64,000 nucleotides of DNA, from the NCBI RefSeq assembly GCF_044371705.1, contig NZ_JBILTE010000001.1, positions 2,570 through 66,569 on the forward strand. The letters are read 5' to 3'. The notes beneath the pieces are model-generated. The model made no database searches, was not told where the DNA came from, and saw only the letters and a list, made by a program, of their open reading frames with translations. The position numbers and the translations under genes are program-made. Shown here one piece after another: positions 2,939 through 56,379 of this stretch (position 1 is its first letter; every line of letters begins with the position of its first letter). This DNA is from Flavobacterium sp. (GTDB lineage: Bacteria > Bacteroidota > Bacteroidia > Flavobacteriales > Flavobacteriaceae).

Positions 2939-2954
2939 TAATTTTTGGTTTAAA

Positions 2955-2982
2955 AAGTTTCAAGTTTCAAGTTTCAAGTTTT
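2955..2982. repeat. Tandem heptamer repeat (AAGTTTC)x3 plus one near-perfect copy
   Basis: AAGTTTC AAGTTTC AAGTTTC AAGTTTT lies in the pgmB-GH65 spacer. Confidence 0.9.
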
Positions 2983-3022
2983 TGTTGAATAATTTTAAAA
3001 TCCCGAAAACTTTAATTTTTTA

Positions 3023-54350: not shown

Positions 54351-54382
54351 AAAAAATCCCGATTTTACTCGGGATTTTTTTT
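54351..54382. terminator. Bidirectional terminator between the permease and accD
   Basis: AAAAAATCCCGA/TCGGGATTTTTT 12-bp inverted repeat. Confidence 0.85.
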
Positions 54383-55235
54383 ATCTAACAGTTTGATTCA
54401 AAATTAAATCAATGTATAAATTGACTTTGTCTTTCAACTCTTTTCTGTGGGTTATAAAATCTAAAAACCCATGTTCTAGCAAGAATTCCGAAGTTTGAAA
54501 ACCTTCCGGCAAATCTTTTCCGGTGGTATCTTTTACTACTCGTGGACCGGCAAAGCCAATTAAAGCTCCCGGTTCGCCAATATTAATATCTCCTAACATT
54601 GCATAAGATGCTGTTGTTCCACCCGTAGTTGGATCGGTACATAGTGAAATATAAGGAATACCGGCATCGGCTAATTGTGCTAATTTTGCTGAGGTTTTGG
54701 CTAATTGCATCAACGAGTAAGCAGCCTCCATCATTCGAGCTCCACCAGATTTTGAAATCATCATAAATGGAACTTTATTTTTAATTGAATAATCAATTCC
54801 GCGAGCAATTTTTTCACCAACTACAGCACCCATGGAACCTCCAATAAAGGTGAAATCCATGCAGCAAACAACTAAATCTTTTCCTTTTGATTTTCCAACA
54901 CCTGTTCGTACCGCGTCTTTCAATCCGGTTTTTTCCATGACGTCTTTCAAACGGTCCGCATACTTCTTGGTATCAGTAAATTTCAAAGGATCTTTAGACG
55001 TCATTTTTGCATCTAATTCTTTGAATTCATTATTGTCAAACAATATTTGAAAATATTCTGAACTTCCAATTCGTACATGAAAATCATCTTCCGGACTTAC
55101 CCATAAATTTTTTGCCAATTCATCTTGATCCACAATTTTACCTGTTGGTGATTTGTACCAAAGTCCTTTTGGCACATCTTTTTTGTCTTCTGTAGGGGTT
55201 TGAATTCCTTTTTCTGTTCTTTTAAACCAGGCCAT
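54381..55235 (-). CDS. accD: Acetyl-CoA carboxylase carboxyltransferase beta subunit
   Basis: MAWFKR start at 55235; [18 protein letters not shown] and IGFAGPRV. The ORF-track extension to 55295 crosses a repeat element. Confidence 0.96.
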
Positions 55236-55252
55236 AATTTTAAATTTTGGTT

Positions 55253-55311
55253 GGAAGATGGGAGATGGAAGACGGAAGAAAACTTCCTGCTTCACACTTC
55301 ACTCTTCCTGC
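55253..55311. repeat. Two inverted arrays of four heptamers (GGAAGAN x4 / CTTCMNN x4)
   Basis: GGAAGAT GGGAGAT GGAAGAC GGAAGAA AA CTTCCTG CTTCACA CTTCACT CTTCCTG fills most of the fbaA-accD spacer. Confidence 0.85.
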
Positions 55312-56379
55312 TTATAAAGTGTTCACATTGTTTAAATCAGCAAATGCTTGCTCTAACCTTTTGTTGAAAGTTAATTCACCTTCGCGAATCCACTTTCTTG
55401 GGTCGTAGTGTTTTTTGTTGGGAGAATCGGCACCATCGGGGCTTCCAATCTGCGTTCGCAAATAATCAATTTTTGAGGTCATATAATCACGAATACCTTC
55501 GGTATAGGCAAATTGTAAGTCGGTATCGATATTCATTTTTACTACACCGTATGAAATAGCTTCTCTAATTTCTTCTAATGTAGAACCTGAACCACCGTGG
55601 AATACAAAGTCAATCGGATTTGAGCTTGTTTTGAATTTATTTTGAACATATTCCTGAGAATTTTTCAAAATTACAGGAGTCAATTTTACATTTCCGGGTT
55701 TGTAGACACCGTGGACATTTCCAAAAGCAGCTGCAATTGTGAATTTCGGACTTATTTTTGAAAGTTCTTCATAAGCATAAGCCACTTCCGCCGGTTGAGT
55801 GTATAATTTTGAGCTATCAACATCAGAATTATCCACACCATCTTCTTCACCACCGGTTACTCCTAATTCGATTTCAAGAGTCATTCCCAATTTACTCATA
55901 CGAGCTAAATATTTTTTACAAATTTCAATGTTTTCTTCGATGGGTTCTTCAGATAAATCAATCATATGAGAGGAGAACAACGGTTTACCTGTTTCTGCAA
56001 AATGCTTTTCAGAAGCATCTAAAAGACCGTCAATCCAAGGAAGCAACTTTTTTGCACAATGGTCTGTATGTAAAATTACCGTAGCTCCATAAGCTTCTGC
56101 AAGCGTATGAATGTGTTTGGCTCCTGCAACTGCACCTAAAATTGCAGCTTTTTCATCTGCATTTGATAATCCTTTACCCGCATTATAAACAGCACCGCCA
56201 TTTGAAAACTGGATAATTACCGGAGCATTTAATTTGGCGGCAGTTTCTAATACACCATTAACAGTACTCGATCCAATAACATTCACCGCCGGAAGTGCAA
56301 ATCCTTTTTCTTTCGCATATTTAAATAGTTCCTGTACTTGATCTCCGGTAGCAACACCTGGCTTAATATTGTGGGACAT
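55312..56379 (-). CDS. fbaA: Class II fructose-bisphosphate aldolase
   Basis: PAVNV, HTDHC, HMIDLS, FGNVHGVY, VFHGGSG and KMNIDTD. Confidence 0.97.
   Translation of the reverse strand: MSHNIKPGVATGDQVQELFKYAKEKGFALPAVNVIGSSTVNGVLETAAKLNAPVIIQFSNGGAVYNAGKGLSNADEKAAILGAVAGAKHIHTLAEAYGATVILHTDHCAKKLLPWIDGLLDASEKHFAETGKPLFSSHMIDLSEEPIEENIEICKKYLARMSKLGMTLEIELGVTGGEEDGVDNSDVDSSKLYTQPAEVAYAYEELSKISPKFTIAAAFGNVHGVYKPGNVKLTPVILKNSQEYVQNKFKTSSNPIDFVFHGGSGSTLEEIREAISYGVVKMNIDTDLQFAYTEGIRDYMTSKIDYLRTQIGSPDGADSPNKKHYDPRKWIREGELTFNKRLEQAFADLNNVNTL

Follow-up and report, generated by a model that had tools for sequence, protein, structure and literature searches.

Inverted heptamer arrays in the fbaA-accD spacer of Flavobacterium: a member of a genus-wide stem-loop class and a candidate RNase III-type site

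Heptamer repeats and intervening sequences

Short tandem repeats with a seven-nucleotide unit have been noticed for decades, in cyanobacteria, in Beggiatoaceae, in Xanthomonas, and as typing markers of a fish pathogen. To our knowledge, no function or origin has been established for them. Hairpins in transcribed operon spacers are also familiar from the REP and BIME sequences of enterobacteria, which fold imperfectly and can stabilise the upstream mRNA; REP sequences are conserved and are spread by the RAYT transposase.

The Coxiella 23S rRNA intervening sequence (IVS) is a stem-loop with terminal inverted repeats, which contains an S23p ORF and is excised by RNase III. Heptameric repeats that vary between strains lie at its 5' cut site, and the cut is made at the first repeat (PMC4990558). 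The STRR sequences of cyanobacteria are 7-bp repeats that form, among others, a hairpin between hupS and hupL; transcript stability or translational coupling have been proposed as their function (PMC2670836). In Beggiatoaceae, cyanobacteria and five Bacteroidota, arrays of TAACTGA precede start codons by a few nucleotides; "other heptamer direct repeats" occur close to them, and a role as leaders for S1- or Csp-type proteins was suggested for them (MacGregor 2015, PMC4679880). The account given there is of direct repeats of a single word, with one indirect set and no hairpin architecture, and the survey took in no Flavobacterium genome (PMC4679880). Heptanucleotide repeats are the most common class of long SSRs in many bacteria, and slippage is given as their origin (Mrazek 2007, as quoted in PMC4679880). 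In F. psychrophilum, 10 of the 12 VNTR typing loci consist of 7-8-nt repeats, nearly all of them intergenic; the units include AAATCTA, AATTCAT, AATCTGA, ATTTTAG and TTTCTAAT, and copy number is polymorphic between isolates (PMC4501049).

The fbaA-accD element

The window analysed here, that is, the whole stretch of 64,000 nucleotides of Flavobacterium sp. DNA, contains at 55253-55311 a 59-nt element: on the + strand, four heptamers of the form GGRAGAN are followed by an A-rich loop and then by four of the form CTTCNNN. An initial annotation of the window gave both the sequence and these coordinates exactly. It also placed the element between the fbaA stop and a point 17 bp before the accD ATG, which stands, except that the orientation had to be corrected: both genes are on the minus strand, so that the RNA is the reverse complement of the + strand heptamers. 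The parts of the locus are as follows.

55312-56379, minus strand: fbaA, class II fructose-bisphosphate aldolase, the upstream cistron (ORF; Pfam PF01116 F_bP_aldolase, E 3.9e-84)
55312-55314, minus strand: TAA stop codon of fbaA, adjoining the element
55283-55311, minus strand: 5' arm of the RNA hairpin, CAGGAAG AGTGAAG TGTGAAG CAGGAAG (from sequence and fold)
55279-55282, minus strand: hairpin loop UUUU, AAAA on the + strand (from the folds; the same in the nearest relative, genome G023)
55253-55280, minus strand: 3' arm, CTTCCGT CTTCCAT CTCCCAT CTTCCAA (from sequence; + strand unit GGAAGAT/GGGAGAT)
55236-55252, minus strand: A-rich leader AACCAAAAUUUAAAAUU before the accD start, unpaired in the folds and the same in G023
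54381-55235, minus strand: accD, acetyl-CoA carboxylase carboxyltransferase beta, the downstream cistron (PF01039 Carboxyl_trans, E 3.3e-21)
First array on the + strand: GGAAGAT 55253-59, GGGAGAT 55260-66, GGAAGAC 55267-73, GGAAGAA 55274-80, then AA
Second array on the + strand: CTTCCTG 55283-89, CTTCACA 55290-96, CTTCACT 55297-303, CTTCCTG 55304-10

The element thus fills the spacer from the stop codon to the 17-nt A-rich leader. Its 5' arm, made of four degenerate heptamers that are G/T-rich in the sense strand, directly follows the fbaA stop, and its other end is separated by 17 nt from the accD ATG at 55235. Each arm has four units, where at least three head-to-tail 7-nt copies define a heptamer tandem repeat; Tandem Repeats Finder (TRF) reports period 7, 4.0 copies and 85% matches at C26:57821-57848.

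The 59-nt sense RNA folds with a free energy of -21.9 kcal/mol (z -4.3; 0 of 200 dinucleotide shuffles were as good), and with flanks, at 95 nt, it reaches -23.2 kcal/mol (z -3.3). The fold is a chain of short helices of 4-6 bp, about 20 pairs over 59 nt, split by internal loops of 1-3 nt; pairing is confined to the 5-nt GGAAG/CTTCC cores, the stem is broken about every 7 nt, and the 3' arm is fully engaged in it. Sequence and sense-RNA fold therefore bear out the description of a repeat-built hairpin whose stem is interrupted every 7 nt or so. In Rfam 15 no family reaches its gathering threshold with the element (the best, mir-3572, scores 20.2 bits where 100 are required, E 0.24), and the element has no match to the sigma-70 promoter or terminator consensus.

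The same spacer in other species

We compared the fbaA-accD spacers of 24 genomes of the same genus and 4 of other genera, and then of 80 more loci with organism names. The spacer is 40-200 nt long in 84 of 104 species, and lag 7 gives the strongest autocorrelation in 80 of these 84, against 1 in 8 expected by chance; as the species share ancestry, the 80 are not independent events. Of the 24 same-genus spacers, 20 fold at z -2.5 or lower relative to shuffles, within a range of -0.6 to -7.9. The two arms are complementary in each lineage, and the words of which they are made differ by lineage:

GAAG/CTTC types: the genome studied and a few relatives
GTTTCAR/AACYTGA, TTTTAGA/ATCTAAA, AGTTATG/CATAACT, CAATTGA/TCAATTG and GTTGTCG/CGACAAC: other lineages
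ACTGAAY types, with MacGregor's TAACTGA among them: other lineages

Period and fold clearly persist at fbaA-accD through complete replacement of the words. Array copy number, which varies from 3 to about 30, also differs between species, each represented by one genome. Most orthologous spacers form near-continuous stems; the geometry of four modules separated by internal loops, on which the initial annotation dwelt, is real, but only this species and the relative closest to it show it. The idea that the whole element might be unique to the strain, with no similar arrays elsewhere, fails, since hairpins occupy this spacer in most of the Flavobacterium species sampled.

Between the genome studied and G023, the spacer is 93% identical (5 of 76 positions differ) and the flanking coding DNA 82%. 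Four of the differences are in the 3' arm and one is in the 5' arm; loop and leader are unchanged. In Crocinitomicaceae, Fluviicola, Arenibacter, Chryseobacterium, Myroides and Flagellimonas the fbaA-accD spacer is only 0-45 nt long and has no arrays. Kordia has a spacer of 378 nt without 7-nt periodicity, and arrays are found at this junction in one Aequorivita and one Nonlabens MAG.

Heptamer arrays across the genome

The genome studied (2.68 Mb in 279 contigs, 35% G+C) has well over 100 tandem arrays of period 7 and period 8, mostly between co-directional genes. Period 7 and its multiples predominate at every TRF score threshold, and a strict lag-k scan finds 55 arrays at lag 7, 7 at lag 6, 15 at lag 8 and none at lag 9. 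With crude gene calls (ORFs of at least 90 aa; 88% coding), and with an array region defined as a 21-nt stretch of at least 80% lag-k identity, 48 intergenic regions pass at lag 7 and 40 at lag 8, against 0-5 at lags 4, 5, 6 and 9 and about 2 in the coding control. Co-directional genes flank 41 of the 48 lag-7 regions, where the baseline is 66% (Fisher p 0.003). By TRF count, 8% of period-7 arrays are in divergent regions, which account for 21% of intergenic regions; in convergent spacers the frequency of arrays is close to the baseline. Many arrays stand alone, without a partner. Together with the hairpins found in the same spacer across the genus, the genome-wide preference for co-directional genes bears out the suggestion of a class of operon-spacer elements.

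The commonest units are GTTTCAR, AAATTCC, GGAAGAT, GTTGCGG and GTTGTAG, and the octamer AGGTNCTR/ACCTYAGN. GGRAG/CTYCC arrays, the family of the fbaA-accD element, are present at about 19 loci, and a BLAST search with the element finds GGAAGAT/GGGAGAT arrays on many contigs, at several contig ends among other places. The words are specific to lineages. A search for (GGRAGAT)3 gives 130 matches in the genome studied and 34 in G023; three other species have none. For (ATCTAAA)3 there are no matches in the genome studied, and 47 and 14 in the two species whose fbaA-accD spacers contain this word. Across the genus, 64 genomes of 151 have (GTTTCAR)3, with at most 211 matches, and the reversed control gives almost none; none of the 11 other genera sampled from the family has it, and in the rest of the phylum its occurrence is sporadic. 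The words that each lineage uses at fbaA-accD are also dispersed elsewhere in its own genome. Purely local slippage does not account for this sharing of words among the loci of a genome.

Four distant Bacteroidota (G188, G434, G268 and G232) have tens of arrays of (GTTTCAR)3 or of the reversed word, so that expansions of heptamer arrays are sporadic across the phylum and not confined to Flavobacterium. In the genome studied, GGAAGAT/GGGAGAT arrays of 13-31 copies were seen at C20:4-168, C31:324-428, C68:1-206, C23:2181-2339 and C121:8140-8355; three of the five are at contig ends, which indicates that the repeats break short-read assembly. C103:3480-3645 and C149:697-867 are near-identical intergenic regions of about 170 nt, each ending in (CAGCGAA)x3.7, and look like a duplicated non-coding segment.

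Within the window there is a second member of the class:

2939-3022, minus strand: array hairpin with a degenerate 5' partner (from TRF and fold)

Its array at 2955-2982 (AAGTTTC x4; AACTTGA x4 in sense) ends 16 nt before the next ATG, and the orthologous spacers of 17 genomes are mostly of period 7 or 8, with other units. The initial annotation had linked to the fbaA-accD element both this repeat, which indeed belongs to the same class, and a repeat at 564-633, which is no convincing member of it, its fold being no better than shuffles (z -0.8). Around the latter, at 545-640, are CTTAAT/ATTAAGG motifs and a 12-bp inverted repeat just downstream of the minus-strand ORF 635-2938.

Order of arrays and position relative to genes

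In the sense strand, the usual layout is a stop codon, a G/T-rich array, a short loop, a complementary A/C-rich array and an A-rich tail. The G/T-rich array starts a median of 5 nt after the stop codon; the A/C-rich array often has more copies than its G/T-rich partner, and the median distance from its end to the next ATG is 22 nt for period 7 and 7 nt for period 8. Adjacent inverted arrays have the G/T-rich one first in 18-19 cases versus 1 (p 8e-5), a rule that the fbaA-accD element follows. The G/T-first order is its own reverse complement and thus does not reveal the direction of transcription; its use as evidence for transcript orientation was rejected for this reason.

Octamers of the family AGGTNCTR (5' arm)/ACCTYAGN (3' arm) have the same stop-to-start layout, as at C231:1528-1637, C111:4108-4198 and C64:17525-17601, and lone ACCTYAGN arrays 4-10 nt before start codons are far commoner than the reverse type, 17 versus 5. 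The notion that 7- and 8-nt units with stop codons serve as three-frame stops was unsupported (31 sense versus 25 antisense).

The proximity of A/C-rich arrays to start codons raises the question of a role in translation. The A/C-rich array might be a structure-free leader, or one for S1- or Csp-type proteins, at an accD gene poor in Shine-Dalgarno sequence, with the upstream complementary array merely masking or tuning it; the same proposal has been made for the TAACTGA repeats (PMC4679880). The multimeric protein-binding site suggested in the initial annotation would come under this reading. Arrays that end less than 30 nt from a start codon are A/C-rich in sense in 38 cases and G/T-rich in 5, and lone period-8 arrays are split 17 to 5 in the same direction. 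Further, of the two periodic segments of the fbaA-accD spacer, the 3' one is the longer in 51 species and the shorter in 25 (p 4e-4), and three species (L046, L047 and L053) keep only the 3' array, with units (T/C)AACTGA. On the other hand, the polarity is symmetric under reverse complement and mostly silent on gene direction, lone period-7 arrays are split evenly (17 versus 17), the 3' arm of the fbaA-accD element is entirely taken up by the stem, and there is no known binding protein. The only asymmetries that are informative about the strand, those of the lone period-8 arrays and of the longer 3' segment, are modest, and we regard a leader or protein-binding platform as distinctly unlikely.

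Genes for IVS proteins inside array hairpins

The genome has six genes of the four-helix-bundle family 23S_rRNA_IVP (PF05635; IVP below):

C10:5643-6008
C216:3065-3454
C247:195-590
C199:1755-2147
C245:3067-3435
C172:31976-32272

All six are between co-directional genes and oriented as their neighbours. In five, a G/T-rich arm of the 7-nt type follows the upstream stop and a complementary A/C-rich arm precedes the next ATG, so that the gene is enclosed in an array hairpin; the flanks of these five co-fold with -24 to -69 kcal/mol. The sixth, at C172, has degenerate arms of about period 6 and an internal TGA.

The C245 junction can be followed across species. It holds an IVP gene in the genome studied and in G014, G009 and G017, a gene-less heptamer hairpin in six species, and neither in eight. 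The four IVP proteins are orthologues, 60-88% identical to each other versus 30-38% to the paralogues in the genome studied. In a tree of flanking proteins, the genome studied (filled) is the sister of G019 (gene-less hairpin) with 100/100 support, and G014 (filled) is the sister of G023 (nothing). From this placement, loss of the gene that leaves a gene-less hairpin is the parsimonious reading at this junction.

The initial annotation had considered that the fbaA-accD element might be the collapsed empty site of a small gene. For the class as a whole the idea has substance, given the five IVP genes in hairpins and the loss at C245. Applied to fbaA-accD, it would mean that a cassette with an IVS-protein gene formerly lay between the two genes and that the element is what its collapse has left; the filled forms in the same genome and the sister species with only a gene-less hairpin provide a precedent. 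But none of the fbaA-accD spacers of the 104 species contains an IVP gene or a remnant of one (tblastn E 0.2 or worse), small ORFs are absent from them with a single unrelated exception, and the filled allele that the annotation envisaged there was thus not found; the loop of the element is only 4 nt, and gene-less hairpins outnumber the six IVP genes about ten to one. Such an origin at fbaA-accD is improbable in our view, and it is compatible with the explanation that we prefer (below). The exception is one Bacteroidota MAG (L058, JBDLWE010000022.1), in which the fbaA-accD spacer is 686 nt long and has an ORF of 116 aa, with flanks that lack heptamer arrays and with no similarity to IVP proteins.

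Transcription of the spacer

In F. psychrophilum THC02-90, the only transcription start mapped is a SigA start 17 nt upstream of fbaA (PMC9723704 supplements). The 61-nt fbaA-accD spacer of this species is classed as "intra", i.e., as part of a polycistronic mRNA; fbaA and accD belong to the same expression clusters, both at about 13.2 log2, and the spacer is at about 11.6 (PMC9723704). The dip in the spacer could reflect excision, or equally poor hybridisation of a structured A+T-rich probe, and equal levels of fbaA and accD show no differential stability. By orthology with F. psychrophilum, fbaA and accD are expected to be co-transcribed in the genome studied as well.

The "intra" class and the level expression argue against termination. 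A stable hairpin directly after the fbaA stop might be taken for an intrinsic terminator or attenuator of fbaA, and the roughly baseline rate of arrays in convergent spacers would agree with that. Yet the hairpin is followed by the A-rich tail AACCAAAAUUUAAAAUU and not by a U tract, the terminator consensus is unmatched, and the orthologous spacer in F. psychrophilum is intra-operonic, with accD as abundant as fbaA. A terminator is accordingly very improbable, and the initial annotation was right that this is not a normal one.

Selection on the transcript or a process in DNA

If the sense transcript were the object of selection, its fold could be better than that of the antisense strand. Across the 24 orthologous spacers, the mean is -19.7 kcal/mol for sense and -20.9 kcal/mol for antisense, and the sense strand has the better fold in 8 of the 24 (Wilcoxon p 0.17), so that selection acting on the sense transcript in particular is not indicated. 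G.U pairs number 48 in sense and 61 in antisense; as they are not enriched in sense, the arms owe their complementarity to Watson-Crick pairs. Either selection on the fold or the copying of one arm from the other as template could be the reason, and a process at the DNA level could keep the arms complementary. The lack of a sense preference neither supports nor excludes a role of the element in RNA.

A serious rival is that the arrays are a neutral or selfish by-product of slippage and template switching in DNA, tolerated in spacers and of no consequence for fbaA or accD. Besides the lack of a sense-over-antisense advantage and of a G.U excess, the fast turnover of words, the range of copy number from 3 to about 30 and the many arrays without a partner all agree with it. 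So do the rank of heptanucleotide repeats as the commonest long SSRs, which has been explained by slippage (Mrazek 2007, as quoted in PMC4679880), and the polymorphism of heptamer VNTRs within F. psychrophilum (PMC4501049). What it does not readily account for is that an inverted-array hairpin is kept at fbaA-accD in most Flavobacterium sampled, despite their small genomes, when most other genera sampled make do with 0-45 nt. Nor would it predict that the spacer is more conserved than its coding flanks between the two closest species, or that the arrays show strict polarity and are depleted from divergent, promoter-bearing regions (8% versus 21%). We consider the neutral reading possible, but doubtful.

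Comparison with known systems

The element resembles the 23S rRNA IVS of Coxiella and Leptospira in being a stem-loop with terminal inverted repeats, here with a stem interrupted by internal loops, and the likeness extends to the PF05635 genes in the loops of heptamer-array hairpins elsewhere in the genome. Unlike the IVS, it lies between protein-coding genes and is not inserted in a helix of 23S rRNA; its loop has 4 nt and no S23p/IVP ORF; and its arms are long tandem arrays with fast word turnover. With STRR sequences it shares 7-bp tandem repeats, a few dispersed families per genome, intergenic position and a hairpin between co-transcribed genes. The dispersal of one unit family over many intergenic loci, by which STRR and SSR families are recognised, is seen here in the roughly 19 GGRAG/CTYCC loci. 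Phylum and words differ, and the STRR description used here includes neither a fold that is conserved while its words turn over, nor an order with the G/T-rich arm first, nor an association with IVP genes.

Like the TAACTGA repeats, the element has a forward heptamer array close upstream of a start codon, its 3' arm being 17 nt before the accD ATG and so within the 1-43 nt or so that is typical of those repeats. Its unit is, however, CTTCCNN/GGAAGAT, and (T/C)AACTGA is found at this spacer in other species. The VNTRs of F. psychrophilum and long SSRs in general are likewise intergenic tandem repeats of 7-8 nt; the former have been used as typing markers only, without analysis of inverted pairing, position rules or orthologous conservation. 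From REP and BIME sequences the element differs in that its sequence is not conserved and its arms are tandem arrays.

The class is therefore not wholly undescribed, as had been proposed, for it has kin in the STRR and other heptanucleotide repeats, the F. psychrophilum VNTRs, the TAACTGA repeats and the stem of the Coxiella IVS. It is rather a variant among known heptamer repeats than something categorically new. In a literature search of incomplete coverage, with few subscription journals, we found no published account of the inverted-array architecture, of conservation through word turnover, of the polarity or of the IVP link in Flavobacterium.

Proposed role

The explanation that we prefer, with a probability of about one half, is that the element belongs, without a gene of its own, to a class of stem-loops spread through the genus Flavobacterium, with inverted arrays of 7-nt, sometimes 8-nt, units, and that it serves as an RNase III-type site. 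A role in processing or stability is probable by analogy: it is suggested by the anatomy of the element, by the parallel with the IVS and by the presence of an rnc gene in the genome.

The steps might be as follows. Arrays would grow, shrink and homogenise by replication slippage, in line with the copy-number polymorphism recorded for the heptamer VNTRs of F. psychrophilum, and the arms would stay complementary either because the fold is selected or because one arm serves as template for correcting the other. Transcribed within the polycistronic fbaA-accD mRNA, the element would form an imperfect stem of about 20 bp, a double-stranded feature between the two cistrons. RNase III-type processing or stabilisation, as in the IVS, may then separate or insulate the cistrons and leave the accD leader single-stranded. 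The stem of this species, being interrupted every 7 nt, would be a weaker substrate for RNase III than the continuous stems of its relatives.

A broader and more tentative proposal, which we think rather unlikely as it stands, is that all array hairpins form a single system of "operon punctuation" in Flavobacterium, with IVS-like stems cut from polycistronic transcripts by RNase III. The stems would be born as the ends of a gene cassette that encodes a four-helix-bundle IVS protein and no transposase, and they would outlast the loss of the gene as gene-less hairpins. Polarity and lineage-specific word families would then reflect directional, possibly protein-guided writing or homogenising of the arrays, and at fbaA-accD we would be looking at an old copy that has become fixed without a gene and now takes part in mRNA processing.

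In one housekeeping spacer, then, a fold and a 7-nt period are found genus-wide while the words change, together with a polarity rule for the arms and, elsewhere in the genome, stems that enclose IVP genes. This connects three bodies of literature, on STRR and SSR repeats, on TAACTGA leaders and on rRNA intervening sequences. There is also a practical side, since the arrays break short-read assemblies, and several contigs of this very genome end in them.
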